DNA of 60,654 bases, counting the filler, from Dugesia japonica (taxonomy: Eukaryota), in NCBI GenBank assembly GCA_001938525.1. It is 6 parts of 6 records of this genome, joined end to end, with 100 filler letters (N's around TTAATTAATTAA, not from the genome) between each part and the next. Parts side by side here need not be neighbours in the genome. Positions count along the whole stretch, not along the records: positions 18,918 to 31,388 come from MQRL01646935.1; 5 more parts are not named here. One strand, 5' to 3'. The notes beneath the pieces were generated by a model. That model saw only the letters and a list, made by a program, of their open reading frames with translations. It had not been told where the DNA came from and did no database searches. This document shows, in pieces, positions 260 to 54,600 of the stretch (position 1 is its first letter; the number at the start of each line of letters is the position of its first letter). The translations under genes were made by a program, and so were the position numbers.

Positions 260-3200
260 ATGAAGATTTGTTGGAAGAATTTGCAAAGACGTTTATAAAA
301 GTTGAAAGTTTTCAGTCTCGCTTACGTATGGCATTTGAGAAAGAAAAAGATGTTATCAAGGATTTATAAAATTTGATTAACTACAGGCGTGAAAATGAAG
401 AGATTCAGGTTTATTTTAAAAATGTAAAAGATTTAGTGGAAAGATTATTTACAAATAAAGATTATAAAAATGAAAAAATGGTAGCGAAGCTAGTATATTG
501 TTCAAATAACAAAAAGGTTGAAGAAGAAGTGACTTTGCGGAAACGAGAGAAATTGAAGAAACAATGATGTTAGTAAATTGAGTAGAGAAAAACAGAGATC
601 GAGTTGATGCAGTCAGAAGTTACGCGAGACTTAAAAATCGAAATTATCAGAAACCACTAAATCATACAATGAATATACATGTGGAGCAAAGAAAGAAAAA
701 ACAAAATATTGAATGTTAGTCATGTCATAAGATCGGTCTACTAAAGCAAATTGTCCGACAAAAAAGTGGTAGAGTGCTGGAGTTGTCATAAAACAGGACA
801 TATAAGTCAAGATTGTCCATTCAAAAATCCAACAAAATGCTTTGGTTTTGGAAAGGTTGGCTATATTAGAAGTTTATGTCAAGAAATGAGGTGTAAACGA
901 TGTGCTAATGGTGGACATAGAGCAAAAAAGTGCTACACAAACATGAAAATGAAAAAAACAAGTGAGAAATTTTTGACTGTAGAAAGATCAAGAAACCAAT
1001 ATAATCGAGTACATGCGATTGAAGATAAAGATGTCAGTACAAACGATGTATATGAGGAAGTATATGAAAGTGATTCTGAAAGGCAGTACCCAAAAGGCGA
1101 GTCTCCACCAGTAGAGGAGTAAGTTGGAGCCATCCATTGTTAAATGATGTGAGTAATTATCCTCAAGGGGTCAAAAAGTGGATGATATCAAAAAGGTTAC
1201 AGAAAAAGTATACAGGTTCTTAAAGAGTGAAAATTTTGCGGAAATTTTGCGGAAAAGTAGAATGGCTTAGAACAATTGAAGCAAAAAAGAAAACAAATAT
1301 TTCTTACCGTAAATTGCAAGGCAGACCTAGTGTTAAGGTATCAATTCAAGTAAATAAAGTTAAATGTCTATTAGATACAGGGGCTAGAATTAACGTGATG
1401 AGTGTGAGTTGTTTTAATAAATTACGAGAAGTAAATTTAGAAATGTGTGATGAAAGATTGCGTTGTTCAAATAATAGTACACTTGAAATTGGATGGAAAA
1501 TTAGAACTGAAATGATAATTGATTAAGTTTGCAAATAGGTTCCTTTCTTAGTAGCAGAAAGAGTGACACCAGATCTGATTGGTGGAATAGATTTGTAGAT
1601 GACATCTGGATACCAGTTTTTATGGAAAAACGGAAGAAAAAATTGAAAATTACATTTTTAATATTAAAGCTAAATTTCGTAGACAAATTAAAAAAAAGGA
1701 GAGCGATTCACAAGAGCTTTAAATATTTTGAAGATTAAAGACGATCAACGGTTATTGAAAATAATTGGAAGTAAAGAAGATGCTTTTATGGCAGATAAAT
1801 GGGATGTAGGACGCACACATCTAACAAGACACAAAATTATCGCATGTGGTGAACCAAAAAATGTAAAACCGTATAGGCAACCAATGAACTTAGAATCTAA
1901 AATTGAAAAAGCTGTCCAAAACCTTATCGAGAATAATATTATCCTGAAATGCAACTCTCCATGGAATACCCCATTCAACTGTGTTTGGAAAAAGCAAAAG
2001 AAATACATAAGAATATGTTTGGATTTCAGACAATTGAATGCAATAACGAAAAAACAAGCCTTTCATATGCCTAAGGTTGATGAAATGCTGGACAAGTTAG
2101 ATGGAGCCAAAAAAAATGCATACTATCAGGTAGAGCTCGGAGAAGAATCTCAAGAAAAAACAGCGTTTTCAACGAAACTCGGACAATATTGTTTTAATAG
2201 AATGCCATTTGGCATCGCAGCCGCACCAGGGACATTTCAGGAGATAATAACAAAAGTGGTTGGCGGAATCAATGGAGCCTTGGTTTATCTTGATCACATC
2301 CCGATATTTACGAACAAATGTAATCATATGTAAACATATGTAATGTAAACATATGTAATCAACATAATTATCAACACTATGAAGTCATTGAAACATTATT
2401 GATGGAAATAATAAAGACTGGTTTAAGAATTAATCCAGAAAGTGTCAGTTTTTTCAAAGCGAAATCACGTTTCGTGGACACATAATTAGTACGGATGGTG
2501 TTAGAACTGATCTGTCTAAAATAGAAGCAATAAGAACATTTGTCAAACCTAACTGTTTGAAGAAGTTACGAAGTTTCTTGAGAATTTGTAATTATTACAG
2601 GAAGTTTATAGAAAACTACTCAAGAAAGTCAAAGATCTTAGAGCATTTGTGTAGCGTACCAAACAAAAAGATATTAGAATGTGCAGATGAAATAAACGAT
2701 ACTACATTTCACGAAAAGAGTTATTAGCTGTTTATTATTTCTGTATGCATTTCAAACATTACTTGTACGGTAGAAGATTTACTCTTAGAACAGCTATAAC
2801 ATTTATAATGACGACAAATAAACCAATTAAGTCACAATTCCAGACATGGATTAATTATCTGAGCAGTTTAGATATGGTTTTAGAATATAGAAAAGGAATT
2901 CAACATGCTAATGCAGATATGTTATCTNNNNNNNNNNNNNNNNNNNNNNNNNNNNNNNNNNNNNNNNNNNNNNNNNNCATGAAGATGCCAAGAAAGGGAA
3001 GATTAAAACGAGAATACTGAACATAATTGAAAAAGAAAAAGAAGATCATTTTAACATTTCTGTGGTAGCAGATTTGATCTAGAAAATGAAAATTCCGGAT
3101 GACAAACTACATGAAACAATAGAAGAAATACACAAATTATTATGTAATGCAGGAATTGACTTGGTGTACGAATATATGAGAAACAAATATATTGCAAAGA

Positions 3201-4025
3201 ATTTGTGGAGCCAAATACAGAAGATAGTTTGTAGTTGTGAAGTTTGTCAGAAGACCAACCGCAACTAAAGAGAAGACAAAGAGTTTAGAAGCTACCAATT
3301 TATTTGAAGTGATATTCACAGATATATGTGGGCCAATGCGGGAAACAAGTGGACGAAAATTAATACATTCTTGGAATAATCGACAAGTACAGTAAATATC
3401 TGATTCTTATACCACTGCCTAGACAAGACAAGAAAACAATACGAAAAGATATTTTTGAAAAGTGTATATTGAGATTTGGCTGTCCAAGAGAAATAAGACT
3501 AGATTGTGGAAAAGCTTTTGAATCTAGAGTTATGAGAGAGTTTGCAATGTAGATAGATAATAAACTTTGCTTTTCTAGTTCCTATCATTATAATGCAAAT
3601 GGACAAATTGAAAGACAGTTCAGGACAATTCGAGATTTAATTAATGCAACACTTCAGGAAGGAAAGACAACATATTGGGCAGATCTTTTACCGGAAATAG
3701 AATTTACAATGAACGCAACAAAACAGAAGACGACTGGAAACAGCCCGACTGAGATCGTTTTTGGAAAGAAAATTAGCAGAGAAACGTGGTACGAGTCAGA
3801 CGTTTCAGATATAATTAAAGAAAACATTTCAGACGTGATTACTAAAAAAGAATTCAAAGTGGGCGATGTTGTACTCATCAAGTTAGAAGCAAGAAATAAA
3901 AATCAAGACAGATTTGAAGGACCTTATCGAATAATTGAGAAAGGCGGTATGTGGTACAAGAAGAAAATGAACAGCGATTAGAAAGAAATGTGGAAAACTT
4001 AGAAAGTTTCTTAAGAAGGGGGATA
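260..4025 (+). mobile_element. Degenerate Ty3/Gypsy LTR retrotransposon (gag-PR-RT-RH-IN)
   Basis: CCHC knuckles (CWSCHKTGHISQDC, CKRCANGGHRAKKC); protease LLDTGA; RT motifs (SPWNTP, RICLDFRQLN, KTAFST, RMPFG, YLDH); RNase H-like HANADMLS; integrase HHCC and D(ICGP)/D(CG)/E pieces; purine tract AAGAAGGGGGA at ~4013. Many stops and frameshifts; LTRs not resolved. Confidence 0.93.
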
Positions 4026-16900: not shown

Positions 16901-18805
16901 TAATTTTCATTTATTAAAAAACGGGCATTTCTTTTCCTACAGTTTAATGATATTTACGGAATTTTAAAATTTGATATTATATCTTTCAAAACCAAAGTAC
17001 AGATTACACAATTTTAACTGAATGAAAATAGAATTCTCAATTACTTTCTATTCTTTCTTGATTCTTTCATACATCAAGTCAGATTCTGTCTTTAATTTGT
17101 TTATTACACGATTAATATTATCAGATTAATGGTACTTTTACACTTGATTTTACCTAATAACTTAATCATTCAGTCTTAATGTAGTAATTTAAAATTATTG
17201 AAAACAGAAAATTAAAAACTAAAGATATTCATAGAAATATTGTTAATAATAGTGATTGTAAGATAGATTTTAAAAGCAGATTTAAATTTTTTGTATTTTA
17301 AAGTTGAATTTATTGAAATCAGTTTTGTTAAATATTTAAATTTTTATCATAAAAATATTTTATAAAATAAATAAATTATCATTTTCATTATTTAAAAAAA
17401 ATAAATACATGTGTATTAAAATTTTCAAATTTCTGTTTGTCAATAAAATATTTTTTTAATGTATTTTTAATATTTTACATTATTACAATTTTAGATAAAA
17501 TAAAATATATATAAAATTTTAAATAAAATAGACTATACAATATTGTCAATGAAATGTTTTTTACAGTATTTTTAAATTTAACATTAATAAAATTTTAAAT
17601 AAAATAAAATAAATAACATTTTAAATTAAATAGAGAATAAAATATTGTCAATGAAATTTGTTTTTTACTGTATTTTTAAATTTGACATTACTAAAATTTT
17701 TAATTAAATATTTTACAAAATACTAATATTTGATATTTTCCGTTTTGAAAATAAATTTTTAAATTTTTTTGAAAAAAAACAAATTTATATNTATAGTTTT
17801 GCATTGTGAATAAATCTTTTATGGAAATGAGTTTTGACATTAATGATCCGATGAGTATTTCAAACTCATCTAAAAGTGATTATTAATATTTTATTTTCGG
17901 ATTTTAAACAAAGTATGATTTGGAAAATTCTTTTCGTTGCTTAAATATTTGATTTATTTTCGGTAGTAAAATCATACTCCTATTTATCTGTGCAGTCCAA
18001 CTGGACATTCACTCGGGAGTATTGCAATTCCATGAGAAATTATTAATAAATTATTGTTATTTAATGATTATATCCGTTTTAGAAACTGTAGATTAAACAT
18101 TTAATGAAATCTGTTTTATCTATGCTTATTCCTTTTGAGTTTTAAAAATGAGATCAATTACACTAGATAGAATTATAATGGTAAATATCCAAATATTTTT
18201 AATTCAATGTTATTGATATTCAAAAGATTAAAATCAAAAATAAATTCATTTATTGTTGTTAATTTTATTTTCTTTTAAATATTAATAGTTAAAAATATTA
18301 AACCCATTTGTTAAAATGAAATAAACTTTATTTCCTTTAGAAATGTTGGTAAGAAGTCTGATGACATTGATGATGAAGACATTGAAGAATTGGGTGGCGA
18401 AGACGAGGAGGCAATATTGAAGAAAATTACCGCTGAAAATGAAACTCTTAAAGAAGAAAGAACTAATTTCTTAGTCGCTCACTTTTTTCTCAGTTTAGTT
18501 TGGTCCTTCGGAGCTATATTAGACAAAGATTCAAAATTGAAATTTGATGATTTTTTTCGAACATTATGTGAAATGACAGATTCACCAAATCAAAAATATC
18601 CTCGGTTGGATTTTTATGAAAATAGATTTAATAAATTAATTTAATTTTAAGTCCGAAAAATTTAAAATGTGCCAGAAACCTGATGATTCCTAAGAAAGGA
18701 ACGATATTTGATCACGTTTTCATGAAAAAACAATTCGGTTGTTGGACTTCCTGGCAAGCCATGATTGAAAAACCAGATTTAGATGAATTAACAAAAACAA
18801 TAGAG
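13951..18805 (+). CDS. Axonemal dynein heavy chain, partial; exons 13951-14065, 14117-14250, 18341-18604, 18652-18805
   Basis: CGMIYMEPLQLG (end of AAA2), LFEWLVPPSLDF, FFLSLVWSFGA, IPKKGTIFDHVF; GT-AG boundaries at each exon. DNAH3/7/12-like, paralog not determined. Confidence 0.9.
15600..16260 (-). mobile_element. Gypsy gag/pro fragment related to the 260-4025 element, inside a dynein intron
   Basis: YEKVYESDSKKQYPKGRAPAVEE versus YEEVYESDSERQYPKGESPPVEE; downstream DNA similarity continues; another small piece at ~16795-16830. Confidence 0.8.
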
Positions 18806-18817
18806 GTAGCTTATTTT

Positions 18818-18917
18818 NNNNNNNNNNNNNNNNNNNNNNNNNNNNNNNNNNNNNNNNNNNNTTAATTAATTAANNNNNNNNNNNNNNNNNNNNNNNNNNN
18901 NNNNNNNNNNNNNNNNN
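18818..18917. other. Artificial contig spacer
   Basis: N44-TTAATTAATTAA-N44. Confidence 0.97.
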
Positions 18918-19566
18918 ATTATATTTACCCTTTAACATTCTAATATAAGCGGTATTAGGTGGGTGTTTAATACCAAATTCTTTGAAATATATATGAAGAT
19001 TCTCTTCTGCTGGATTATCATTTTCAGTTATAGTTCCACAAAGTAATTTCATTAATTCTTCATTAACAGGAGTAAGTTTATCTAATGTTGTATTGTATTT
19101 GTTCTATTTCAATAAAATATATTTTATTGTTACTAATTTGATAACCTTGATAGTTAAAATCATTAATCTTTTCATCAATAATTGTTGGTGTTGTTGTTGG
19201 AGTTAAAGCCGCAGAGTTTATTTTAATTTTATCTAGCCACATTTTAGTTGGTTTTTTATCATAAAATTCTGGATTTTCAACTTCNNNNNNNNNNNNNNNN
19301 NNNNNNNNNNCTTGTGGTTTTATTTCTGGTGTAGATGTTATTGTTGTTGTTTGAGGAACTAATGGTTGTGGTTGTGATTGTTGTACAGTTTGTTGTAAAG
19401 CAGAAATTAATGGTTGTTGTTGAAATGCGAATGATGATTGTAAATTTTTTGATTGAAGAACATTGCTTGTAAAATAAACATTATATATTTCTGCCGCTAG
19501 TATTATTTTTAAATCTTTAATTCTTTTATTTATTTCGCCTTTATCTCCAAATTTTAGCCCCGCCAT
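18918..19566 (-). CDS. Uncharacterised viral protein with Gln/Thr/Pro-rich linker; probable frameshift near 19075, runs off contig
   Basis: ORFs 19078-19566 and 18918-19052 join by homology to the relic at 4154-5020; ATG lies 1 nt after the previous stop. Confidence 0.65.
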
Positions 19567-19567
19567 T

Positions 19568-20026
19568 TTAATAAGGATTTAAGTATATTCCATCGCCTTC
19601 ATCATCATCATCATCTTCATAATATTTCCTATATGGTCTTAAATATATTCCCCCTCTTTTTTTAAATTTTTTAGAAGGTTTTAAATTTTGATTTTTTAAA
19701 TATTTATAAATTGCTTCCCCTTGTTTTTCAGTTATGGTTTCTACAGGAACGTCTCGTTCTAATTTTTCAATTTCAAGTTTCTTTTTATATGCTTCTCGCG
19801 AATTTGAAACGGTGGATGCCACTGCACTTGCTGCACCTGCTATACCGGCAATTATCGCGGGTAAGAAAAAAAGCCCACCATGTTTTTTCTGATGTTTTTT
19901 TATTTCTTCTTTTGCTTTTTTCCCAATCCAATAATTTTTACCTTCAATTTTAACTAATCGGCTAAGATTTGAATTTATTAATTTTTTTAATTCTTCTGTG
20001 ATATTTGTCTTCAGTTTGTTTGTCAT
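19568..20026 (-). CDS. Putative virion core/membrane-active protein (adenovirus pX/pVI-like role inferred)
   Basis: Basic run then KHGG-LFFLPAIIAGIAGAASAVASTV hydrophobic helix; repeated RGGIYLRPY / GDGIYLNPY motifs of the kind seen in Polinton-group virion proteins. Confidence 0.65.
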   Translation of the reverse strand: MTNKLKTNITEELKKLINSNLSRLVKIEGKNYWIGKKAKEEIKKHQKKHGGLFFLPAIIAGIAGAASAVASTVSNSREAYKKKLEIEKLERDVPVETITEKQGEAIYKYLKNQNLKPSKKFKKRGGIYLRPYRKYYEDDDDDEGDGIYLNPY

Positions 20027-20027
20027 T

Positions 20028-20784
20028 TTATTTAGCAAAAATATTTGTCGTTATTTGATTTTTTAATTGGTTTAAATAAAAATATGTATATGGAGTTTTC
20101 CAGTGCAAATTTACATTATGATCATATTCATCTTTATTACCAAATACATTTGAAAACAAATCACAATAAACACTATCACGATCTCTTTTATTTAATCTAA
20201 AAAATATAAAACAGTTGCTGTTATTTCTTATTGAATTTTTATCAAGGTGAATATATGTTTGTGAAATATAAATTACATTACAGTTAGAATGTCTGCCTCT
20301 GGTAAAATAACTTTTTTGTACTTCTTGATTTTTTTCATTTACAACATCATCAAAAATTACAAGATTTTTTTTCTTTTCTAATTGATCACATCGAGTAATC
20401 TCTAATGCTTCTGCATTTAATTCAACTTCAATTGTTCGAAGTTTTATTGTTACTAATTTCTTACAAACGAAAAAATCTATAACCTCTGTTGGGGTGTCAC
20501 AATAATTAGGGACTATGTGTTGTTTATTAAACATAAGTATAATTTCTTGTTTAGTTAACCCATTTAAAAATCCATGATATAATAATTGTACTTCAAATTG
20601 ATTATTGTAGTTGAATAAAATAAAAGATTATCATAATCAAGAAAACCTGGTATAAGTAACATTTGTGTCAAGAGAACATTTTTCCCACAGCCAGAAGATC
20701 CTTTTATTAACAATCTAAAATTACTAGGGAAAAGTTTTTTTTTTTAAAAATTGTCTTGTCTTTTCTCCAAACCAAATTTACCAT
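20028..20784 (-). CDS. A32/FtsK-HerA family DNA packaging ATPase (two frameshifts)
   Basis: Walker A GSSGCGK at ~20682-20702, upstream of the called ORF; Walker B NLVIFDD; A32-type RGRHSNCNVIYISQ and IRNN. Frameshifts in an A11 run (~20740) and near 20600. Confidence 0.9.
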
Positions 20785-20791
20785 CTTTTAT

Positions 20792-22028
20792 TTATAAAGA
20801 AGTTTTTTGTAACTCTGCTTCATAAAATCTTTCAAGAACTTTTATACCATTAGAATTTACAATCTTATAAGTTCTTGGAATTGTTAAATAAAATTTTTTC
20901 TTTGTATAAATTTCTTCGGTCCATTTAAATCTATATGCTTTTCCTAAAATATTTTTTTGAGTTGTAAATATTCTAACTCTATCTCCTATTTTAAATTTAT
21001 GTTTAAAATTTTGAGATCTCTCATCTTTAACTTCCTCATAGTAAACATTGCCTGTTACATAAGCTTCTGCTGGAGTTGTCTTTATTGAAGAATGAACTTT
21101 GTTGTTGTATTCATTTATAAATTTATCTAATAATTCTTGTGTAATTTCTTGATTCCCAACGGCAGTAAAATGTTTAAAAAGTTTGTTTTTAAGTGTGCGA
21201 TTAAATCTTTCAATAACAACTGCCTTTCCATAATTAAAATTAGAATACATGCTAATGTTATTTTTCTACACCATGTGCCAAATGTTAAATTATAAAATTC
21301 CTTTCCTCGATCTACCCATAAATGTTTTGGAACTCGATTATTATTATTTTTTAAAATATTTTTAACTGCTATTTTAATTGTTTTACGTGTTTTATTTTCA
21401 CAAAGTTTGGCAAAGGCAAATCTTGTATAAATATCAATCACAGTTAATATTACTTTTTTATTATGACATGTTAAATCTGCAGACCAAGTTTCATCAGGTT
21501 CACTTACTGTTACTTTTAAAAATTGTTTTAGTTTTTTATAAATTTTATGTAATTCTTTTGCGTCTATTTCTCCTCTTACTCCCTGACCAATTAATAATTT
21601 TGCCTTCATTGCGATTTTTACAAGAGTGCCTTGATGTTTTTCTTCTGGTGTAGGATCTGGTATATCATTAATATCATGAATTAAATTTACATCTGAATTA
21701 TGTCGATCTCTCATGTCTTCTGAATGATAAGCAATATCATGTTTCAGTGCTGCTGCATCAATTCTATTAATTGGTTCTTCTCCTGGTAATGGTTGTTGGT
21801 TTTTATCAAGTCTTAAATCTAATCTAGTTCCTGGTCCTGTATAATTATGGTGAAGCAAATGTCGCTCGCCTAGATATTTTTCCCTTGTAAAAGGTTTTAA
21901 AACACTGCTAATAAAAGATGAAGATTAAAGATCGCCTCCGCCCTTACAAAGTTTTTCATGCCTGGCTTTATTTTTTTTAACAAAGTTCTATGACATTTTT
22001 CACATGAGAATTTTGTTGACTTGGTCAT
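20792..22028 (-). CDS. Fusion: C2HC Zn-finger-like N-terminus + parvovirus-type phospholipase A2 + retroviral-like (rve) integrase
   Basis: HNYTGPGT and DAAALKHDIAY (PLA2 Ca-loop and HD motif) share one open frame (21127-21858) with WSADL, VIDIYTRFAFA and LWVDRGKEF. One missing A at ~21262 links to IERFNRTLK and FKIGDRVRI (20792-21250). Upstream CEKC-x11-H-x3-C is recovered with one extra A (~21975) and one stop (~21925). Confidence 0.88.
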
Positions 22029-22032
22029 TTTT

Positions 22033-23286
22033 TTAACGAGGAAATTCAACACCTTTAACATTTTCAATCATTGCAATTTTATTGTTTGCTAATTTCATTT
22101 CTATATGTTTTTCTTCAAGAATACACCAGTAAAGAGCTGCAGTAAATTCTGGATCTTTTGTAATGTGAAGTGTTACTTCAACATTGTTAATATTTAATCT
22201 ATCATCTTGCGCTGTCAAGTCAAAACAGAAAATAGGATATTTTTCACCAAATTCTAAAAGTGATAATTGTGGTTCTATAAAGAAGTCTTGACAACATTTT
22301 AAATAATTAAAATAGGGAGAAACCATTTCATTATTTTTCATATTAAATTTACATTCATTAATTGGATAGTAATTATTGTTTAATTGTATTTGTACGCTTT
22401 TTAAATATTGATCATCGGTTGTATCTTTTCCATCTACTTTTATTGTTTTTGATTTCTTTTGTATAAATAAATTATCATTTACAAAAGAATTGGTTTCATT
22501 TTTCATGGCAATAAAAATATATCTTGGTTTGTATGCTAGCATACTTAATTTTAAAGAAGTATAATTTCCTGTATTTAATATTGCTTTACCAGTTATTCGA
22601 TTTAAAAATGCAACTTTAATTGGTTTGTCAGTTGAAATTCTTTCTAAAAGCAATAATTCCATTTTTGGTGCCAATTTACATTCTGGAATATGTAATTCTA
22701 AAGTCATTAATTTTACATTTGGTGTTCCTTCTCCTTTAAATAAAATTTTATTATTAATTTGTCTATAACAATTTAATTCAATCATTGTATTGTAAAGCAC
22801 NNGATTAAAATTCTGCATAAATCCAAATAAATTTCTCAATGGACAATAACCCTCAAATTTATTAAGTTTGTATAATTTTTTTCTTCGCTCTTCATCTATA
22901 ACCCATCCTGATAATTCTCCATATATTTTTTTATGAGTATAACTTGTTGTAATAAAATTTAACATTGTAGATATTGTCCCAGGATAATTAATAGTTTCTA
23001 CATCAGATGCTCCAAGTTTTAATCTCATAAATTTAAATAAAGATGGGGAAAAATTGTTTTCTAGGATTGCTGTTTTAGTGGCTTCATTTTCTATTTCAAT
23101 TTTAAAGTATAACATTGCATTACAGATGTCTAATGAATTTGTTGACTGCAAAGATTGAAAAGTTATCTCCCCATCTTTAATTAAATTTGTAATTGTACTA
23201 GATGATGGTGAAATTTTTAAAATATCATTTTTTAACATTTCATGAGTAAACATAATATTATTATCTAAATTTATTTTTGTCTCCAT
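22033..23286 (-). CDS. Major capsid protein, double-jelly-roll (Polinton/adintovirus hexon-like)
   Basis: ~417 aa open frame with LENNF.PSLF..MRL.L, PLRNLFGF, PRYIFIA, LNNNYYP, YPIFCFDLT motifs; sits next to ATPase and integrase. Confidence 0.82.
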   Translation of the reverse strand: METKINLDNNIMFTHEMLKNDILKISPSSSTITNLIKDGEITFQSLQSTNSLDICNAMLYFKIEIENEATKTAILENNFSPSLFKFMRLKLGASDVETINYPGTISTMLNFITTSYTHKKIYGELSGWVIDEERRKKLYKLNKFEGYCPLRNLFGFMQNFNXVLYNTMIELNCYRQINNKILFKGEGTPNVKLMTLELHIPECKLAPKMELLLLERISTDKPIKVAFLNRITGKAILNTGNYTSLKLSMLAYKPRYIFIAMKNETNSFVNDNLFIQKKSKTIKVDGKDTTDDQYLKSVQIQLNNNYYPINECKFNMKNNEMVSPYFNYLKCCQDFFIEPQLSLLEFGEKYPIFCFDLTAQDDRLNINNVEVTLHITKDPEFTAALYWCILEEKHIEMKLANNKIAMIENVKGVEFPR

Positions 23287-23303
23287 TTTCAATAGTAATT
23301 TTT

Positions 23304-24243
23304 TTAAGTGTATATTTTTTTATAATTTATCATATCGGATGGTTTTTGACTTCTTCTTTTACTTTTTCTTTTTCCATCACCATCACGATTATAATTGCCA
23401 TTGCCATTATCTTTACAATTGCCATCGCTATTACGGTTGGCCCTACTATTGTCTTTACGGTTGTCCCTACCATTATCATTACTATTGTCATTTCCATTAC
23501 CATTTCCATTACTATTGCTATTATAATAATTTTTTTTACTATGGTGTTTTTTTTCAACCCTATCTTCTAGTGAAATATATCTCCCATTATAATCTGTTTC
23601 CATTAAAGTTTTTGTTGTTCTTTTATTATAAGGAATGTTAAATTTCATTATATATGTTTTTATTGTTTTTTCATTAAATGAATTAATTTTACAAAAATCT
23701 TTTATTGAATTTTTTTTAAATTATAATTTTTCATCATTGTGAGTAAAATAGAATCAAGCAATTTTTATAATAATTTTTTTAGCTGTTGCTCTAGTTATGC
23801 TTGTACATGTTGGAGGAACTTTCACTCGTTTAGATTTTTCTGTAATTTTTTCTTTCCCTTCTAAGTTGTCATAAAATTTTATAATCTCTTTGTGAAAGTT
23901 GTTTTCTACCTTCTTTTAATGTAAATGTAAAACATAAGTCTTTATAAGTAATTATTGTTGGTTTTATTTTTTTAGAATTAACTAACAAATTCATACACTC
24001 ATTTTCTATGTTTTGATAAATAAAAAAAGATATTATAAATTTATACATCTCCCTGTCTTTTTCTTTTATTTTATTTTCTTCTGCCATTTTATTTATTTCA
24101 TAAAGGGTAATTAAGTTTTCTTTTACTGTATCTTTTGTTAATTTTTTTTTAAAATATTCTTTAATTTTTTTATCATATACTTTATTGTCATTTAAATATT
24201 CAATTATATTATAAATTACATCTATCCCAATTTCTTCTTCCAT
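23304..24243 (-). CDS. Uncharacterised protein(s), probably one frameshifted gene with an HTH-like segment and Asn/Gly/Asp repeat tail
   Basis: ORFs 23869-24243 and 23304-23648; the latter frame extends upstream as SIKDFCKINSFNEKTIKTYIMKFNI; NGNGND-type repeats. Confidence 0.45.
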
Positions 24244-24254
24244 TTTCTATAGAG

Positions 24255-24721
24255 TTAAATCATGATTTTTTTTACACAGTCTATTGGTTTTCTAAATTTT
24301 CTAATTCTTGGATTTGTATCTAAACCAAACTGTTTATAACAAACCTTTTGGGGTTTTAATTCTTCATTTAATTTTTTTAATGCTGCATTGTGCTCATCTC
24401 GTTTCTTTTGGTGATTTTTTTTCATCTCCTCTTTTTCATCCTCAGATTGAAAGTATAACTCTCCCTTGCACTCTGCATCTGTTGCTACCGCAGTAAAATA
24501 TTCTATTAATTTTCCATAGTGTTTCTTTTCTGTTTCATCGAAATCTACTGTTTCAAATTTTTTTTTTTAAAATTATAATCTTCTAAATTTTCATCCACTA
24601 TGTGCGCTAGTGATTTATTTTTTTTATAATCTTTACTTTCTTCTAAAGTAGGCAGTTCTTTACCTATTATTTTATTAAATGCTATTAAAGCTAATTCTAA
24701 ACCTAGTCCTATTTTTACCAT
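24255..24721 (-). CDS. Uncharacterised first ORF of the viral element (frameshift in A-run ~24560)
   Basis: ATG at 24721 directly after the repeat array: MVKIGLGLELALIAF...; resumes FETVDFDETEKKHYGKLIEYF after a homopolymer shift. Absent from the ORF track. Confidence 0.5.
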
Positions 24722-24744
24722 TATTTTCTTAAGGAAAAATTTGT

Positions 24745-25370
24745 GATTTTTTTTTTATGTTAAATATTTTATCTCACATTTTCTGTTACATTTTCTATCA
24801 GGGAATTTTCTATGTTAAATATTTTATCTCACATTTTTCATGTTAAATATTTTATCTCACATTTTTNNNNNNNNNNNNNNNNNNNNNNNNNNNNNNNNNN
24901 NNNNNNNNNNNNNNNNNNNNNNNNNNNNNNNNNNNNNNNNNNNACATTTTTCATGTTAAATATTTTATCTCACATTTTTTCATCTCATATTTCCTATCTC
25001 ACATTTTTTATCTTACATTTTGTGTCTCACATTTTTCATTTTAAATATTTCATCTCACATTTTTCATCTTACATTTTCTATCTCACATTTTTCATCTTAC
25101 ATTTTGTGTCTCACATTTTTCATCTTACATTTTTCATGTTAAATATTTTATCTCACCTTTTTCATGTTACATTTCCTGTCTCACATTTTCTATCAAGGAA
25201 TTTTCTATTTTACATTTTTCATGTTACATTTTTTCATCTCACATTTTCTATCTCACATTTTNNNNNNNNNNNNNNNNNNNNNNNNNNNNNNNNNNNNNNN
25301 NNNNNNNNNNNNNNNNNNNNNNNNNNNNNNNNNNNNNNNNNNNNNNATTTTTCATAGGAAATTTTCATTT
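24745..25370. repeat. Degenerate tandem array of ~13-27 bp units (TCTCACATTTT / ATGTTAAATATTTTA)
   Basis: Motif repeated more than 20 times, with internal N gaps. Confidence 0.9.
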
Positions 25371-25604
25371 TGAAAAATGTCAAAATAGTGGTGCTAAGCA
25401 ATGGTAATTATTAATATACTACCCAGTAAGTTAGATTTTATCAATTATTCATAACTCAAATAAATTTTGAAATCTCAATTAATAAATTAGAGTCGAAACA
25501 AAATTAACAAATATTAAAAATGTGAAAACAATATTTTCGATAAATTCTTAGTTGAAAATTATTTACAAAATCAAAGCTGTCATATCAATAAACCATTAAA
25601 AGAT

Positions 25605-26445
25605 AATTGGGTGTGACAACCGAGCTCCCAGAAAACCCGTACTTTCATCTCGTCTCTCATTTCTACACTTCGAAACTATTTTCTCGACTAGCAATTAATT
25701 CATTCATCACTCCTAAATGGTTTGCTTCCTTCGGTATTCATTTCTGATGAGAAGTTCCACGAGCCATCTTTTATTTTAACTACCATCATTCTCTCGGACA
25801 TCAACTTTGTACCGTCTCTATTTTCACTTTTAATATTAACTCCCTGGTAATATTAATCAGTAATTTCTGCATTCATTTTCCTGAATACTCAATCTTTCTC
25901 TCACAAATGATGTTTGGTAATTTTGTTGCTTTTACCTTCCTGAACTATCCATCTCTTGTTCATTCATTTCACGCATCACATTTTATAAATTCAGTGCCAT
26001 AATCGCCTCGAACAATAAATCACTGTTTCAATCATTTTATGAATCATATTTTTACAGATTTGTTTCTTTAATTCTCTCAAATGAATTTTTCTTTGGTTCA
26101 TTTTTGCACGAGTCATAGTTTTACAAATTTGTTTTCTAAATTTTCTCAAATAATAATTCTCTGGTTCATTCATGTTACGAATCATATTTTACAAATTAGT
26201 TTCTTTAATTTTCTCAAATAATCAATCTCTGGCTTGATCATTTTACGAAACTGATTTTATAAATTTGGTTCTTTAATTTTCTCAAATAATCAATCTCTGG
26301 TTGATCATTTTATGAAACATATTTTCTGTAAATTGGTTTCTTTAATTTTCTCAAATTCGGTCTCTGGTTTGCTCATTTTACGAATCATATTTTATAAATT
26401 GGGTTCTTTTATCGGGAGCTCGATCACTAGGTTTCTGGGGCGTAC
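25605..26445. repeat. Element with imperfect inverted ends enclosing a ~60-bp tandem repeat (26020-26410)
   Basis: CGAGCTCCCAGAAA at ~25621 versus GGGAGCTCG...TTTCTGGG at ~26414-26440; unit TTTCTTTAATTTTCTCAAATAATCAATCTCTGG... repeated about six times. Confidence 0.55.
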
Positions 26446-26998
26446 TCGGATCATAGAAAGTTAGTTTTAAACAAATATTAATGGTTAATATTAATAAAAT
26501 TTAGTTTCTGTAATGTAGTTTTCGTCCTTGAAAAAAAAATAGATTTTTAAGTTACTTTCCAATATTTGGCTTAAAAGTAGAAAATTTTTAAATTTTTAAA
26601 ACGAGGAGTGTCTACTTTTTCTTGTGTGTCTACTTTTTCAACAATTCTCTATTTTTTTATAGTTGATATTGTTTCATCATATAATTTCTCCATTTGCTAT
26701 ATATCGAGTTTTATTCCTCGATTGCACCCCAGCTTGAGATCACTCATTCGTTCGCCAATCATTATCTGGTGTTGGTAAATCGTACCTTCTGATTTGGTGG
26801 CACCTTCCTCTCATTTGGTGTGCAACTCTCCTTGTAGGTGTTCAACACATCAACTTGTAATTTCTAAATTATTCAGCCGGTCACCTCGTTTGACCTCTGA
26901 ATAATCGGATAGTTGGTGTGGAAAGTCTTTGTCCGAATCATGGTGAATAAGCAGTTTTTGTTGTTTATTTGAGATTTTTATCGCTTGATTCAGACAAG

Positions 26999-28250
26999 TC
27001 ACCATGTTTGGATTTTCTTATGAATTCTTTCATTCATTGTTAATATTATTTTTTCTCTTACTATAAGAAACATGACATGTTTTCTGGCCTTCTCTATATC
27101 TTGAGTAAATTTGCCAGTATTTTCTATGTTGTCTGGTTTATCAAATACTATTCTCTTTCGTAGTTCCATCATCTTTAATACAGCTGGGTTTTGTGCTGTT
27201 TTACCATCTGAAGCAGTGATCCAAACGTCATCATTTGTTTTGTATAATGGGTCAAGAAGATTACTACATTTGTTAATTTCTTTGGGTTTATGATTTTCAT
27301 CTGTTAAAATTACTGGTAATAATAAGACCTTTTCATTATTATGTATTACTGGCAGTTCATTTGTACATTTTGGATGATCCGTTAAAGTAACTTTNNNNNN
27401 NNNNNNNNNNNNNNNNNNNNNNNNNNNNNNNNNNNNNNNNNNNNNNNNNNNNNNNNNNNNNNNNNNNNNNNNTGCCATCAGATCTGGGTTAGTAGAAGCT
27501 AAGGCCATTTTTGTACGTAACAATTCTCTATTTTTTTATAGTCATTTGATATTGTTTCATCATATAATTTCTCCATTTGCTATATCAAATTGTGGTATGC
27601 GAAATCGATTTTATTGTTAATATATGAAGCTAATTTGATGTCCAATACTTGATCTTTAGAGCCTTTGATAAATTCCGTAGATTTATATAAACCGTTATAA
27701 TTGGTTTTCTTTACTGCAGTGGCGCATTTTATTGTTTCTCTTATGTCAATAAATCTCATTATTTCTCTTGAAAAATTGTTACATATATAGTGGGAGTTGC
27801 TTTCTCTTGTGTCACTGTCATTTCTCTCTTTTTGTCTCTTACTTCTTTAGCTAGATTTTCAGCAAATCTTTGTCCCAAAATAGTACACTCATGCGGATTT
27901 ACTTTATATATCAATATNNNNNNNNNNNTATCACAGCTGGAATCTTTTAAATTACAAAAAGGGTGTGTCATTATCTTCCCAGTAACTGAATCGAATGGAG
28001 CTTTGAATTTTCTCAACTCTACTAATACATCCATCTTACTACTAAACTGCTTCTCATTTGTCCCCATAAAAAGTAATTTCCTCCTCCGCACCATTCTTTT
28101 CCGGATGACCATCCAACTGTCTTTTAATTGTCATACTTTTATTACAATTCGTGCGTCTAATTCCACATTTCCATGAACTGTTATTTTTTTGTTTTCGAAT
28201 GCTTTATTACAATCTTCTGCTGATATATTTACTGCTGATATGATTTCCTT
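26999..28250 (-). pseudogene. Chuvirus-like / gB-type envelope glycoprotein relic (EVE or retrotransposon env)
   Basis: Ordered motifs ISAEDCNKAF, FCNLKDSSC, ALASTNPDLMA, CTNELPV, CSNLLDPLY...W, GKFTQDIEKARKHVMF...RE; stops and deletions. Confidence 0.65.
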
Positions 28251-28484
28251 TTATGACCTTAATATTGTTAATCTATATAAATTATATTTGTATAAATATT
28301 CTATATAGTCGACTATTTAATAAAAATGTAAGTCAATTAATTTAAATAAACTTTATTCAGAAACTAAAATCGTCACTACTCAATTTAACGTTTACAAAAT
28401 TATAATAATTCACATTATTATTTTTATCACTAAGTGTCGGTTCAGTAAACCTCGACTTTTTTTGTGATTTTTTTGCGTATTTAT

Positions 28485-28510
28485 ACTAGATCGGCCGTTT
28501 GGCCGTTACA
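28485..28510 (-). mobile_element. Helitron-like 3' terminus
   Basis: Minus strand CGGCCAAACGGCCG hairpin followed by ATCTAG|T. Confidence 0.5.
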
Positions 28511-29589
28511 CTTTAAATCTAAAATTAAGGTGGAATTTACAAATGAAAAATAAATATTTATAAAAACTTTTCAGTAATTACATAAAATTTTCAATTTAAA
28601 ATAAATATTTATAGAAGTTTTTATATGATAACATTATTATAAAGGTTTTCAGTAATAAAATTCAATCAATAATTCTGTACATACAGATTGAAAATAACGA
28701 ATGTCTGGATTTGATCACCAAATAAATAGAATTATTAGTGTTTGGATATTTGAATTAGGGAATCTATAATTTNNNNNNNNNNNNNNNAGAAGCACATTAT
28801 TATCTAATTGTTTTGTATTGATTTGTGCATGTTTGTGTATTTGTGTGGTTTATAATTTTCTGTTTCCCAACAAAACAATTAAATTGAACGATTCACTACG
28901 TTTTTAACTAAATTTTATTTCAACTAAATTTATTTCAACTACAACTTATATTTTAACTAAAACTTATTATAACAGAATTTGCTTATTAAGCTATTAATAA
29001 AAATATGGCACAAGTAAGAGATTAATTATACTGCAGCTTTTAATATACAGAAAAAACTTCAATCAAAACCAAACTATGCCTAAAAATATAAGACCTTGTT
29101 TGAATTCTCAATACATTTCCCAACAACTCTCTTAATAAGCTTTTTAACTTTATAAACTTTTAATTTCGCTTTGGGGTTCAAATCTCGTATTATTCTGAGT
29201 AATTTGAATTTTATTTAGATTTTAGTGCTTTTTTATTGAATTATAAATGCTACGATGTTCACAATAAATACTTTTTTGAAATTCATTGTGCCAGCCTTCA
29301 ACTGAATTATTTCTGGAAAGGTAAGTTGCTACAGCGTTGAAGCTATTCCACATTTGCTCCTTTAATATATGTTGTGGCCATTTACCCTTATCATTAGGCC
29401 TTCTAGTCCATGNNNNNNNNNNNNNNNNNNNNNNNNNNNNNNNNNNNNNNNNNNNNNNNNNNNNNNNNNNNNNNNNNNNNNNNNCTTATTAAATGAAACA
29501 AATGCTAAAGTTGGTAATTTTACTTAATAAAATAAAGAAATATTAATTAAATTTACGCGAATTTAATGAAATGTTCTCTAATAAAGAAG

Positions 29590-32867: not shown

Positions 32868-33262
32868 GTAGTTTAGTTTGGAATATAATTTGTTTATCAA
32901 TATAAAAAGAAACATGAAAATAAGTGTAAATTTTTAATTCGATAAATACGAAAAATGAGATAAGAAATTGAAACTAGCTTATTACTGAACAGGAAATTCT
33001 TAGATAACGCATCACTGGTTATAATCCTGTACCAATATAAAAATAATTAAATATTTTAATTTTAATATAATGTATTCAAAACAGAAAATCTTAATTTAGT
33101 TTTAATGAATTTCAAAACTAACAATAGTGACATTCTAATTTAACATCACTACAACATCAATTAAACATAAATTGAAAACTTCATTGCATAGATACTTTTA
33201 TAAAAAAAAACTGATAAAATTATTACGATAAGATAATTATTAAGAATTAAAGAGATTCTTAC

Positions 33263-36200
33263 CAACATGAGCCTGTTTAAGAGCTCCAACATCATTTGTT
33301 CCGTCACCACACATTAATGTTACATAACCCAAATCTTTTAACCCAATAACAATCTGTTCTTTTTGCTTAGGAGCTACTCTTGCATAAACCCGAATAACTG
33401 GTAACATTTTACGTAGAAAGCGTAAATCGGTTTTCTCTAAAAATTTGATTCCTTCTCCAGTCAAACAAAAATCATATTTTCCAATTAATTCCTTTAAGGG
33501 CTTATTACTAAAATTCCATTTCAATATCACAGTGTTACTAATCGATTGCCAATGCCATTCATTATCTATTGAATGATAATTATAAATTAATAATCAGTAA
33601 TAATAAATACCAAAGCTGTTGGGCTTAGTCAAAACTAGAGTATGTTCTTTTCTCAAAAACCTTAATTCTTTACTAATGTGACATGCCGTCAATGGATTGT
33701 CTCCAGTTATCATGGTAACATGATGACTGGATTGTAAGATTTCTTTAATAACATATTTTGTATCTTTCTTCAAAGGACATGAAATAACAACAAATCCACA
33801 GAAATTCAATTCTTTTTCAATATCGGATCTTTTCAAATCTCTAACCTAATAAATCTATAATTAAGTAATACAAAAACAAATTCGCACAGCTTGATGTGAA
33901 AGTATTCCAATATCCTTTTGTCCCAATGCTAGCACTCTTGCACCTCGCCGAGATAAATCAAGATAAATTTGATCATAGTCTTTAGGAGCATCGATATACA
34001 TATCCTTCATAATTTCTGGAGAACCTTTTACAGTGGCTATGTAGGAAATATCTACGGATCCTAATTTTGAATGCCCAGCAATTACAGACATTCTCTGTAA
34101 GGAACTACTAAAATGAAATCGATAATAGATTTTCAACGGATGTGTTTTATAGATTGAACTGGGAAAAACAACATCTCCTTTAGATAATGTCCAACTAGCA
34201 GATTCTATTATTGCTTTTTCAAGTGGATCTCCAATTATATCGTAATCCATTTGAACAAGCGAATGGCAAGTTGCTAATACTTGTACTGTTTTAAGTGGGC
34301 ATTCGTTTACAGGAATTAGACCATTGCTAGACGTATGTATATCCGGACTAAATAATTAATTGTAAAAATTTTGTCATGGAGATAAATGTAAATTAATTTA
34401 TATCTTTAAAAAATTACTTCAATCCTGCTACGCCATCAACCAACATTTCATCCTTTGTCAATGTACCAGTTTTATCAAAACAACAAATATCTATCTTACC
34501 AGCAAACGGTATTCTGAATGGTTCTGTACAAAAGACCACTAAACACATATATTGACATAAATATATCTGCATATAAAAAATACATACACAATTTTGTTAG
34601 AGCTAATAAGGATGAATTTACGGCTAATGATAATTCAATAGGCAATTCTGGTGGGACTACTGACGTTAATATAAGAGTACATTCTAAAAACAATTTGTAT
34701 TTGTTTCGTTTTGGATCTTGAGTTCCTGAATGAAGTAATTTAAACGTAAATAAAAATATATTCTCATAAAATGATAATATTTATCTCTAAAATATAAATT
34801 TCAAAATTTATTCTGCTTTCATTTCTAATACATAGTCCTCATAATACAGTATTTTAAAACTTTAAATTTTAGTTCTTCTATAATACATTTTCGAATGCAG
34901 CCTTTTTGTCCAATCAATCTTCCACATTAAAAAAAGGCAAACTTGTATTGTTAATTAATAAATTTTAACGTTTGATTTAGCGCACCACTATTTAATATTA
35001 TTTAAAAGTTGGTAAAAAATATTATACTAACTTCATAATAAATGAAAGTTCAAATTCTATTTTTTAAAAATAGCATTATAAATATATGTATTCGATTGAA
35101 AAAAATTTGATTTGTATTATCAATATGAAAGCTGTTTAAAAACGAAAATGTGAATTAAAAATTCATTATATTTCCATATATGTGATGTATATGGAAATAT
35201 ATTAAGTGTTCGTCAATGCCAGGAGTAGTTCACTCGATTCCGATCAGGAGACTACAGCTTTCATGATTAGCCAAAAACTGGATGGCAAACTTTGTTGGAC
35301 AGAGCTCTGAGCTCTGAGCTTTGAGAGCTCTGTTCGAATGAAACAATCTTAGAAATGGCTCAGACACTGGGGAGCGGATGCGCCTAACAGTAATTGAAAA
35401 GCACTGCAGAGCCAAAAATGGGTTCCCCATAAATTAACGGAAGATTACTGCGAATTTTTATCTGCAATTTATTGGTTATTAGACATGAAAAGGAAACGTT
35501 TCTTCGACATCTTGTTACCGGTGATGAGAAATGGGTTTTGAATGATAACCCTGTTTGCAGAAAACAACACCTATCTCGTGGTGAGAAGCCATTAAAGACC
35601 GCATGACCTGGACTTCCCTCGAAAAAGGCATTGCTCTGTGTTTAGTGCCATCTCAATGGAATAATATATTTCCAAGTGCTTAGGATTGGTCAGACTGTGA
35701 CTGCTGACATTTATTGTCATCAATTGGAGCAGTTACATGAAGCTCTGATAGCAAAACGACAAGCACTGGTCAACAGAANAGGAATTGTACTTCATCAAGA
35801 TTACGCTCGTCCACACACCACAAAAGTCACTCAACAAAAACTCAGAAATTGTGGTTGAGATCTCCTACCACACTCATCATATAGTCCTGATTTGGCTCCC
35901 ACTGATTTCCATCTATTTTGGTCTCTCAAACACTTTCTTAACTACAAACAATTTATTAATCTGAATGCTACCAAAATTGGCATTTCAGAAAACTGCTTTA
36001 AAAAGCCATCGTTTTATGAGAAAAGTATTAAAAATCTGGTGCAAGGATGGACTAATTTCATTAACAATGATGATGAATATATTGATGATTATTTAATTTT
36101 ACGGAGTAATTAAATGTTAAATAATAAAAACGCGGTTTCTTTCGGGTACACCTGACATATCCGGACTAAATAATTAATTTTAAAAATTTCGTCATGGAAA

Positions 36201-51545: not shown

Positions 51546-51682
51546 TTTTATAAAAAATTACTTAATTTTTTTAGTAATGAAAAATTTTCAATGTTTTTAT
51601 CATCTTGTAAAGAAAAGTTTTAATTTGAATATTGTATCATGTAAATATCACAAAGACTCCCCTGTTTGAAATTTTTTGGAAG

Positions 51683-54600
51683 CTATATTTTTATTACCGG
51701 ATCAAACGATTTAATAATATCGATTATTTTTTTATGACCTCGCTTTTTGGCATTACCTATCAGTTGATATCCTCTCTAAATTATCATTTATTAATAAATT
51801 ATTTAGTAAATAACAAATAAATTACTTCATAAGTTGCAGTGATATCACATTTGTTCTCTATCAATATTTTCACAATATCAATATGACCATTCTGACATGC
51901 CAAATGTATCGGTTGATATCCACTCTAAATTATCATTTATTCATAAATTATATAGTAAATAACAAATAAATTACCTTATCAGATGCATTGATATCACATT
52001 TGTTTTCAATCAATATTTTCACAATATCAATATGACCATTCTTGCATGCCCAATGAATCGGTTGATATCCATACTAAATTATCCTTTATTAATAACTTAT
52101 TAAGTAAATAAGAAATAAACTACTTTATCAGATGCATTGATATCACATTTGTTCTCTATCAATATCTTCACAATATCAATATGACCATTCTTGCATGCCA
52201 AATGTATCGGTTGATATCCATACTAAATTATCAATTATTAATAAATTATTTAGTAAATAACAAATAAATTACATAATTAGATACATTGATATCACATTTG
52301 TTTTCTATCAATATTTTCACAATATCAATATGACCATTCTTGCATGTCAAATGTATCAGATGATATCCTCTCTAAATTATCAATTATTCATAAATTATTT
52401 AGTAAATAACAAATAAATTACTAAATCAGATGCATTGATATCATATTTGTTCTCTATCAATATTTTCACAATATCAATATGACCATTCTTGCATGCCCAA
52501 TGAATCGGTTGATATCCATACTAAATTATCCTTTATTAATAACTTATTAAGTAAATAAGAAATAAACTACTTTATCAGATGCATTGATATCACATTTGTT
52601 CTCTATCAATATCTTCACAATATCAATATGACCATTCTTGCATGCCAAATGTATCGGTTGATATCCATACTAAATTATCATTTATTAATAAATTATTTAG
52701 TAACTAACAAATAAATTACATTATTAGATGCATTGATATTACATTTGTTTTCTATCAATATTTTCACAATATCAATATGACCATTCTTGCATGCTAAATG
52801 TATTGGTTGATATCCATTCTAAATTATCATTTAGTTATAAATAATTTAGTAAATAACAAATAAATTACTTCATTAGATGCATTGAAGTCACATTTGTTCT
52901 CTATCAATATTTTCACAATATCAATATGACCATTCTTGCATACCAAATGTATCGGTTGATATCCATTCTAAATTATCATTTAGTTATAAATAATTTAGTA
53001 AATAACAAATAAATTACATATTTATTAGATGCATTGATATCACATTTGTTCTCTATCAATATTTTCACAATATCAAAATGACCATTCTTGCATGCCAAAT
53101 GTATCGGTTGATATCCATTCTAAATTATCATTTATTCATAAATTATTTAGTAAATAACAAATAAATTACATCACTAGATGCATTGATGTCACATTTGTTC
53201 TCTTTCAATATTTTCACAATATCAATATGACCATTCTTGCATGCCAAATGTATCGGTTGATATCCATTCTAAATTATCATTTATTCATAAATTATTTAGT
53301 AAATAACAAATAAATTACATTATTAGATGCATAGATATCACATTTGTTCCCTATCAATATTTTCACAATATCAATATGACCATTCTGACATGCCAAATGT
53401 ATCGGTTGATATCCATACTAAAATATCATTTATTCATAAATTATTTAGTAAATAACAAATAAATTACATCACTAGATGCATTGATATCACATTTGTTCTC
53501 TATCAATATTTTCACAATATCAATATGACCAGTCATACATGTCAAATGTATCGGTTGATATCCATACTAAATTATTATTTATTCATAAATTATTTAGTAA
53601 ATAACAAATAAATTACACCACTAGATGCATTGATATCACATTTGTTCTCTATCAATATTTTCACAATATCAATATGTCCAGTCATACATGTCAAATGTAT
53701 CGGTTGATATCCATTCTAAATTATCATTTATTCATAAATTATTTAGTAAATAAAAAATAAATTACTTCATAAGTTGCAGTGATATCACATTTGTTCTCTA
53801 TCAATATTTTCACAATATCAATATGACCATTCTGACATGCCAAATGTATCGGTTGATATCCACTCTAAATTATCATTTATTCATAAATTATATAGTAAAT
53901 AACAAATAAATTACATATTTATTAGACGCATTGATATCACATTTGTTCTCTATCAATATTTTTACAATATCAATATGACCATTTTTGCATGCCAAATGTA
54001 TCGGTTGATATCTACTCTAAATTATCATTTATTCATAAATTATTTAGTAAATAACAAATAAATTACATCACTAGATGCATTGATATCNNNNNNNNNNNNN
54101 NNNNNNNNNNNNNNNNNNNNNNNNNNNNNNNNNNNNNNNNNNNNNNNNNNNNNNNNNNNNNNNNNNNNNNNNNNNNNNNNNNNNNNNNNNNNNNNNNNNN
54201 NNNNNNNNNNNNNNNNNNNNNNNNNNNNNNNNNNNNNNNNNNNNNNNNNNNNNNNNNNNNNNNNNNNNNNNNNNNNNNNNNNNNNNNNNNNNNNNNNNNN
54301 NNNNNNNNNNNNNNNNNNNNNNNNNNNNNNNNNNNNNNNNNNNNNNNNNNNNNNNNNNNNNNNNNNNNNNNNNNNNNNNNNNNNNNNNNNNNNNNNNNNN
54401 NNNNNNNNNNNNNNNNNNNNNNNNNNNNNNNNNNNNNNNNNNNNNNNNNNNNNNNNNNNNNNNNNNNNNNNNNNNNNNNNNNNNNNNNNNNNNNNNNNNN
54501 NNNNNNNNNNNNNNNNNNNNNNNNNNNNNNNNNNNNNNNNNNNNNNNNNNNNNNNAGATGCATTGATATCACATTTGTTCTCTATCAATATTTGCACAAT

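Follow-up and report, generated by a model that had tools for sequence, protein, structure and literature searches.

Introduction

Retroviruses make their integrase within a Gag-Pol precursor that also contains a structural protein, reached in frame or through a -1 shift, from which it is released by the viral protease. The virions of the virophage mavirus hold an integrase and a cleaved hydrolase, and the sites of the mavirus protease are given as GG|X and GX|G in the sections of the study covered here (PMC6048507). The phospholipase A2 (PLA2) of parvoviruses probably breaches membranes as the virus enters the cell (PMC8502044, PMC4642659). For the Polintons of animals, a virion has never been observed, according to passages of a recent preprint (bioRxiv 10.64898/2026.06.19.733378).

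The supplementary protein file of Buck et al. 2024 contains, among at least 59 occurrences of 'PLA2' and at least 342 of 'integrase', two proteins that are labelled 'PLA2-Integrase' (PMC11071296). In the passages of the text of that study that were covered, no comment on the label was found, and -1 shifts are predicted for penton and for hexon-adenain only (PMC11071296). Main-text mention of a PLA2-integrase fusion, or of a frameshift between the two, was likewise not found in passages of PMC8502044, PMC5803895, PMC3671162, PMC12567637, PMC7805220, PMC6048507, PMC11161782, PMC12721341, PMC10748475, PMC11131425, PMC12220804, PMC11296320, PMC4642659, PMC11071296 and bioRxiv 10.64898/2026.06.19.733378. 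A fuller prior description may exist, because Repbase, subscription journals and some supplements (the Starrett slide and the 2026 preprint supplements) lay outside this search. The in-frame fusion is of a kind that is already labelled and undescribed; new and testable are the variant with its integrase in the -1 frame, the fusions of a protease to integrase and the logic of packaging.

Results

A joined PLA2 and integrase in a planarian element

The window, which is the whole stretch of Dugesia japonica DNA that was analysed (60,654 nucleotides), contains on its minus strand a stop-free frame of 221 amino acids (21262-21924) that by translation encodes a parvovirus-type PLA2 followed by the N-terminal half of an rve integrase. 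Both domains score above the Pfam cut-off, Phospholip_A2_4 (PF08398) at residues 22-87 of this piece (E 1.3e-9) and rve at residues 142-220 (E 3.3e-8). The PLA2 (21580-21924) has the hallmarks of the parvovirus type, namely the YxGPG calcium loop, HDxxY, a second Asp and a three-helix fold, and ends in K-x-x-x-G-x-G. Its YTGPG (21843-21829) and HDIAY (21741-21727) share one frame with LLIGQG (21597-21580), WSAD (21486-21475) and VDRG (21315-21304), and the stretch from 21579 to 21262 holds a short linker, an AKELHK motif and the first and second catalytic Asp of the integrase. The join between PLA2 and integrase is itself real.

The remainder of the gene is broken. The frame changes at an A-run near 21265, past the second catalytic Asp of the integrase and ahead of its Glu, and this Glu (VIERFN, 21217-21200) and the C-terminal beta domain lie in a different frame from the PLA2. 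This C-terminal half (20792-21265, minus strand) has 45-55% identity to fused homologues, matches a purpose-built INT profile (E 1e-42) and ends in ELQKTSL and a stop at 20792, without a chromodomain. Pfam, motif reading and relatives together identify an rve integrase with the D, D and E residues, the Glu being out of frame here. Upstream of the PLA2, a zinc finger of CxxC..H..C type and KGGGDL (21925-22028, minus strand) are interrupted twice, first where the frame changes near 21975 and then, after KGGGDL, at a stop codon (21925-21927); most of the same-species contigs that span the site lack this stop. As it stands, this copy is unable to make the fused protein. The frame changes sit in homopolymer runs, so that decay and assembly error both fit the breaks.

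The initial annotation had read PLA2 and the DDE core as one uninterrupted frame over 20792-22028, which holds for 21262-21924 but breaks down ahead of the third acidic residue, near 21265. Its finger followed by KGGG was correctly placed upstream, split by the breaks just described. The linker that it had given as LLIGQGVRGE begins in frame with LLIGQG, conservation being limited to K-x-x-x-G-x-G, and its view that the integrase has no chromodomain at the C-terminus is borne out here and in the nearest relatives. RNA across the gene was sought in two raw same-species runs (6% and 25% read), which yielded no more than 68 and 96 partial reads, for the most part poly-T, and left most of the gene uncovered, and no indexed RNA run was listed with a match. 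For the junction in other copies of the same host, no bridging contig was found among the matches listed.

The genes around the fusion all lie on the minus strand and abut tightly. Directly upstream is a major capsid protein of 417 amino acids with a double jelly-roll (22033-23286; DJR-like_dom, PF21738, E 1.3e-17), and downstream are an A32-like packaging ATPase with two frame changes (20028-20790; Pox_A32, PF04665, E 7e-7) and a separate gene for a small core protein with an adenovirus pX-like GGLFFLP motif (19568-20026), whose homologues in the metagenome loci L004, L006 and L009 match Adeno_PX weakly (E 9e-4 to 0.03). An ORF with no Pfam match (19078-19566) tightly abuts the pX-like gene and is followed by an assembly gap. 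Three ORFs upstream of the capsid gene (23304-24566) recur in many same-species contigs and are probably part of the element; tandem repeats of 14 and 68 nucleotides beyond them (24750-26412) may lie near one of its ends. No terminal inverted repeat or target-site duplication was found within 18900-28800, the element being cut by assembly gaps. Protein-primed PolB, penton and an adenain-like protease were not found in the window, which has a gap at 18917; among relatives, PolB stands beside a member of the clade in L014, and PolB, penton and adenain are all present in Adinto6405. Capsid, fusion gene, ATPase and pX-like gene form a Polinton/adintovirus morphogenesis module, and the element is a decayed, integrated copy, the breaks in which fit decay or homopolymer assembly error. 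In two public same-species runs, 9,586 and 8,614 contigs match 19000-24600 at a likeness of at least 85%, so that copies of the family must be numerous in the genome.

Beyond the tandem repeats, on the same strand as the element genes, is a Monjiviricetes_fusion fragment (27002-27535; Pfam PF24664, E 3e-13), flanked by a short direct repeat at about 26660-26700 and 27550-27600; a fusogen is reported from nematode Polintons in the passages covered of PMC10748475. Elsewhere in the window, translation shows the gag knuckle, protease, RT and integrase pieces of a decayed Ty3/Gypsy retrotransposon (745-3978, plus strand), and about 18 copies of a 149-nucleotide unit (51609-55079) have a translation that looks like ankyrin-repeat exons. 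We take two further stretches to be host exons, one resembling dynein heavy chain (18315-18641, plus strand) and the other a P5-type ATPase (33243-34780, minus strand).

The fusion is shared by a family of elements

Judged from the sequences compared, the PLA2-integrase fusion is a trait of the family and is not specific to this copy. The initial annotation had looked to relatives for PLA2 and rve in one protein and for the same junction, and both were found. The two Pfam domains occur together in 14 of the 30 longer homologues (34-52% identity), a profile search finds PLA2 with integrase in 110 of the 120 best proteins listed, and the best 150 representatives in a library at 50% identity comprise 33 with PLA2 then integrase, two with integrase then PLA2, 114 with integrase only and one with PLA2 only, all of these counts being biased by the fused query. 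The best 80 of 128 metagenome loci divide into 23 with PLA2 and integrase within a single ORF, which adjoins capsid, ATPase and pX, 29 with the two in separate ORFs, 18 with PLA2 only and ten with integrase only. Scans of IMG/VR viral contigs with the fused profile, with the protein P0111 and with the capsid protein gave no relative, the capsid protein alignment being too divergent to serve as a search query.

In relatives, the catalytic residues of PLA2 and integrase are intact. In 121 fused proteins, the PLA2 catalytic H, D and Y are kept in 120, 119 and 121, and the integrase D, D and E in 121, 120 and 120, respectively. The lysine and first glycine of the K-x-x-x-G-x-G that ends the PLA2 are present in all 121 and the second glycine in 101, and GG precedes the PLA2 in 95-103; the background of G-x-G within integrase domains is 27 in 73,762 positions. 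The N-termini are more varied, 12 of them having a C2H2-type finger and 27 a C4 ribbon (DUF5679), whereas the rest have neither. The suggestion of the initial annotation that the polyprotein is perhaps cut at GG/GxG sites is supported in that these motifs are conserved on either side of the PLA2 and match the mavirus protease sites; what weakens it is that GxG also ends stand-alone PLA2 proteins, which in L031-L039 stop 1-3 residues past the same GxG, and PLA2X, and the motif may for that reason be structural. The P4 position of the GxG site is K or R in 74 of 96 cases, and that of the adenovirus protease is M, L or I. Adenain-like genes stand beside the integrase in L005, L012, L015 and L020, and an adenain is also encoded by Adinto6405 and Adinto15303, two complete genomes of the fused type. 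One ORF of L005 (2182-3513, minus strand) combines a protease-like domain with a pX-like motif.

A tree of integrases places the window gene in a chromodomain-less, in-frame clade of 116 rows, 105 of them fused (support 0.987), and a second tree recovers the window clade with 13 of 13 rows (SH-aLRT 100). Fusions recur in scattered branches of the tree, the deep branches of which are weak. Three proteins (P0273, P0294 and P0333) carry an adenain-like protease, instead of PLA2, N-terminal to an integrase with chromodomain, connected via Gly motifs; all have H..D..Q..C motifs and two match Peptidase_C5 (E 0.014-0.019). The reverse order, integrase and chromodomain followed after a GxG motif by PLA2, is seen in P0327 and P0391.

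Several further arrangements were observed in the course of these comparisons. In two predicted proteins of Lottia gigantea (P0013 and P0014), the first integrase motif follows the PLA2 with nothing in between and then gives way to unrelated sequence; the underlying gene models are probably wrong and overlie elements of the fused type in the limpet genome. In loci L071, L073, L079 and L080 the PLA2 stands alone and does not end in GxG; these elements also have a TBP-like gene and, at a distance, an integrase with chromodomain. Large ORFs of SF1 helicase type adjoin the integrase, in the place of PolB, in L039 (1651-5199) and L047 (286-3279).

The PLA2 domain was modelled confidently, with a pLDDT of 88.9. 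Its best solved match is a rice PLA2 (Z 7.2, rmsd 3.9, 87 aligned residues; bee-venom PLA2 has Z 5.7), and its best viral matches are the PLA2 domains of entomopoxvirus and densovirus; the rice match is middling on its own. The full-length model has separate domains joined by low-confidence linkers (pTM 0.42) and matches foamy virus and RSV integrases in fold. Foldseek with this model returned integrases only, and no fused viral protein was among the top 50 BFVD rows.

In a sister clade the integrase lies in the -1 frame

The 29 metagenome loci with separate ORFs comprise three in which the genes abut and have their own ATG (L032, L034 and L039), four in which they are distant or broken, and 22 in which they abut without a usable start. 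No Met precedes the first catalytic Asp in 21 of these 22 loci. Their integrase is in the -1 frame relative to PLA2 in 19 and in the +1 frame in three, an excess with a binomial p of 0.0009 for loci that are not independent; clustering at 80% identity leaves 10 against 3. Most of the -1 loci are otherwise unbroken, and of those placed on the tree all except L011 form a clade of their own, with chromodomain and DUF5679. A chromodomain in fused or -1 form is present in L027, L029 and P0111.

Within the overlap, 16 of the 19 -1 loci have an in-frame heptamer of the form X XXY YYZ. The heptamers seen are A AAA AAC, T TTA AAA and A AAA AAA, with one A AAA AAG, and several of the slippery sites contain only A6 (A AAA AAC). 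The overlaps offer about 290 positions for these 16 cases, and upstream only 11 such heptamers occur over 3,517 codon positions; an A7 run is also present in two of the three +1 loci. An in-frame heptamer and the lack of a second start, which are marks of a programmed -1 ribosomal frameshift, are present; a stimulatory RNA structure after the slippery site was not found by pseudoknot-free folding (z -1.7 to +1.9 against shuffles; consensus -0.9 kcal/mol). A short intron at the junction finds no support as a mechanism common to these loci, as 13 of the 19 have no frame-restoring GT-AG stretch of at least 30 nucleotides and nine have none at all.

Short PLA2 proteins, which end a median of nine residues past the GxG, dominate in a relative that is present in high copy number on contigs of Mb scale. 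The tails of 100 of the 120 short clusters listed (7,276 members) fit the -1 arrangement, 590 members fit +1 and about 190 (21 clusters) are in frame, counts that are taken from the best 120 per list and in which in-frame forms are undercounted. Tails of the short and long forms are one DNA read in three frames in 6 of the 7 tails tested, compared with 1 in 2,000 random tails. Long A-runs occur in this family, in which all three frames are present. In the Hydra adintovirus BK012049, as far as the record was compared, PLA2X and integrase overlap, yet the integrase has its own Met and the two are annotated as separate genes.

Discussion

The arrangement of these genes suggests how an entry enzyme and an integrase might reach a new host cell together. 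With somewhat better than even confidence, we propose that the fused protein is a precursor that is packaged in the virion and cut at GG and GxG. Zinc finger, PLA2 and rve integrase would be encoded as one virion precursor, which would carry the integrase into the particle; as the particle matures, the adenain-like protease of the element would cut it at GG and GxG. The PLA2 would help in endosomal escape, and the incoming DNA would be accompanied by the integrase. In the sister clade, the positions of heptamers and starts make it likely that recoding, by ribosome or polymerase, joins PLA2 to integrase. The same precursor would there be made at lower yield through -1 recoding at an A-rich site, giving much PLA2 and little integrase in a manner analogous to gag-pol. 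The more general idea, that Polintons deliver integrase in the retroviral style by tying it to a virion enzyme (PLA2 or protease), in frame or through -1 recoding, with release at Gly sites, is one to which we give slightly less than an even chance.

The join could stem from a deletion particular to this copy, a refuting case named in the initial annotation, or from an error of assembly. This could be argued from the gappy assembly, from the several breaks in this copy and from a linker about 45 residues shorter than that of the closest proteins in the database, and is extremely improbable given that more than 100 independent proteins share the architecture and that the published Dugesia elements, in the records compared, share the finger, the PLA2 start, the short linker and the upstream capsid gene (PMC11071296 supplement). 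Adjacent genes could also have merged merely through the economy of a compact genome, with no role in packaging. Tightly abutting genes, the recurrence of fusions in scattered branches and the separate neighbouring genes of L032, L034 and L039 fit such merging, and the last of these indicate that fusion is not required; however, the partners of the integrase are virion proteins, Gly motifs bound the domains and chance merging would not keep a start-less -1 arrangement, and we regard mere economy as unlikely. Another reading is an uncut protein that works whole, with its PLA2 anchoring integrase and bound DNA at membranes or at the capsid in place of a chromodomain or N-terminal domain. Linkers are nearly absent in P0058 and the Lottia proteins, P4 is non-canonical and the main fused clade is without a chromodomain, but L027, L029 and P0111 have one, the model predicts separate domains on low-confidence linkers, and GG or GxG suffices for the mavirus protease in the passages covered (PMC6048507). 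Permanent tethering thus appears quite unlikely to us, and cleavage of a packaged precursor is the reading that we retain.

A further doubt concerns only the sister clade and leaves the in-frame fusion untouched. The -1 arrangement could reflect separate initiation, polymerase slippage on A-runs, splicing, or decay and sequencing error, as would fit the lack of a stimulatory structure, the long A-runs and three frames of the high-copy family and the Met of BK012049 (seen in the parts of that record compared). Against this stand the bias of 19 to 3 (p 0.0009, the loci not being independent), the otherwise unbroken state of most -1 loci, the scarcity of frame-restoring GT-AG stretches (13 of 19 loci lack one of at least 30 nucleotides and nine lack any) and the several sites that are no longer than A6. 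Polymerase slippage would, moreover, give the same product as a ribosomal shift. We consider these explanations possible and, taken together, doubtful, and continue to regard recoding as the likely origin of the -1 arrangement.

A conserved join of entry enzyme and integrase with sites of protease type is indirect evidence of selection for a particle stage, and retrovirus-style delivery, if true, would be evidence that the elements spread in the form of particles and integrate when these enter a cell. There are also consequences for annotation: fused proteins carry the labels 'integrase' or 'transposase' only, and the start-less integrase genes of the -1 type would be mis-called as broken.

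Among known systems, Gag-Pol resembles the PLA2-integrase by analogy, in that integrase is made within a precursor, in frame or -1. It differs in that here the virus has a DNA genome, a double jelly-roll capsid and no reverse transcriptase, the partner is an entry enzyme and no RNA stimulator was found. Mavirus, in the sections of Born et al. 2018 that were covered, shares an rve integrase and a lipase-like protein in the virion and a protease that cuts at GG|X and GX|G, but it encodes them as separate genes, has an alpha/beta hydrolase instead of PLA2 and belongs to a different virus group (PMC6048507). The PLA2X of alpha adintoviruses is likewise a parvovirus-type PLA2 in a virion gene module with a proposed role in entry, as described in passages of Starrett et al. 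2021 (PMC8502044). It combines PLA2 with pX and stands beside a separate chromodomain integrase, whereas in the window the PLA2 is followed by integrase and the pX-like protein has a gene of its own (19568-20026). Buck et al. 2024, in the passages covered, define adintovirus integrases by a C-terminal chromodomain, which the window integrase lacks and the -1 clade has.

The closest match to the window gene among those compared is provided by the endogenised Dugesia elements uAdinto11140, uAdinto15034 and uAdinto20531 (PMC11071296 supplement), which have the CxxC..H..C finger, the GGDLQSS..PFT.EKYPGERHL start, a short linker, the capsid gene directly upstream and no chromodomain. They are other copies with breaks of their own and, in the records compared, are labelled just 'Integrase', with PLA2 unmentioned. 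The label 'PLA2-Integrase' is carried by two adintovirus records of that supplement, Adintovirus nemertoderma6405 (BK066529) and sediment15303 (BK066759), and the fusion is therefore annotated without being common among the annotated adintoviruses there, which only partly bears out the concern of the initial annotation that it might already be common in annotated Mavericks. As far as they were compared, these two genomes differ from the window element in having no N-terminal zinc finger and in being complete, with the PolB, adenain and penton that are unseen in the window, but they encode PLA2 and then rve in one ORF as in the window family, the PLA2 being preceded by GG and followed by GxG, and they share the absence of a chromodomain, a separate pX-like protein and a related capsid protein.
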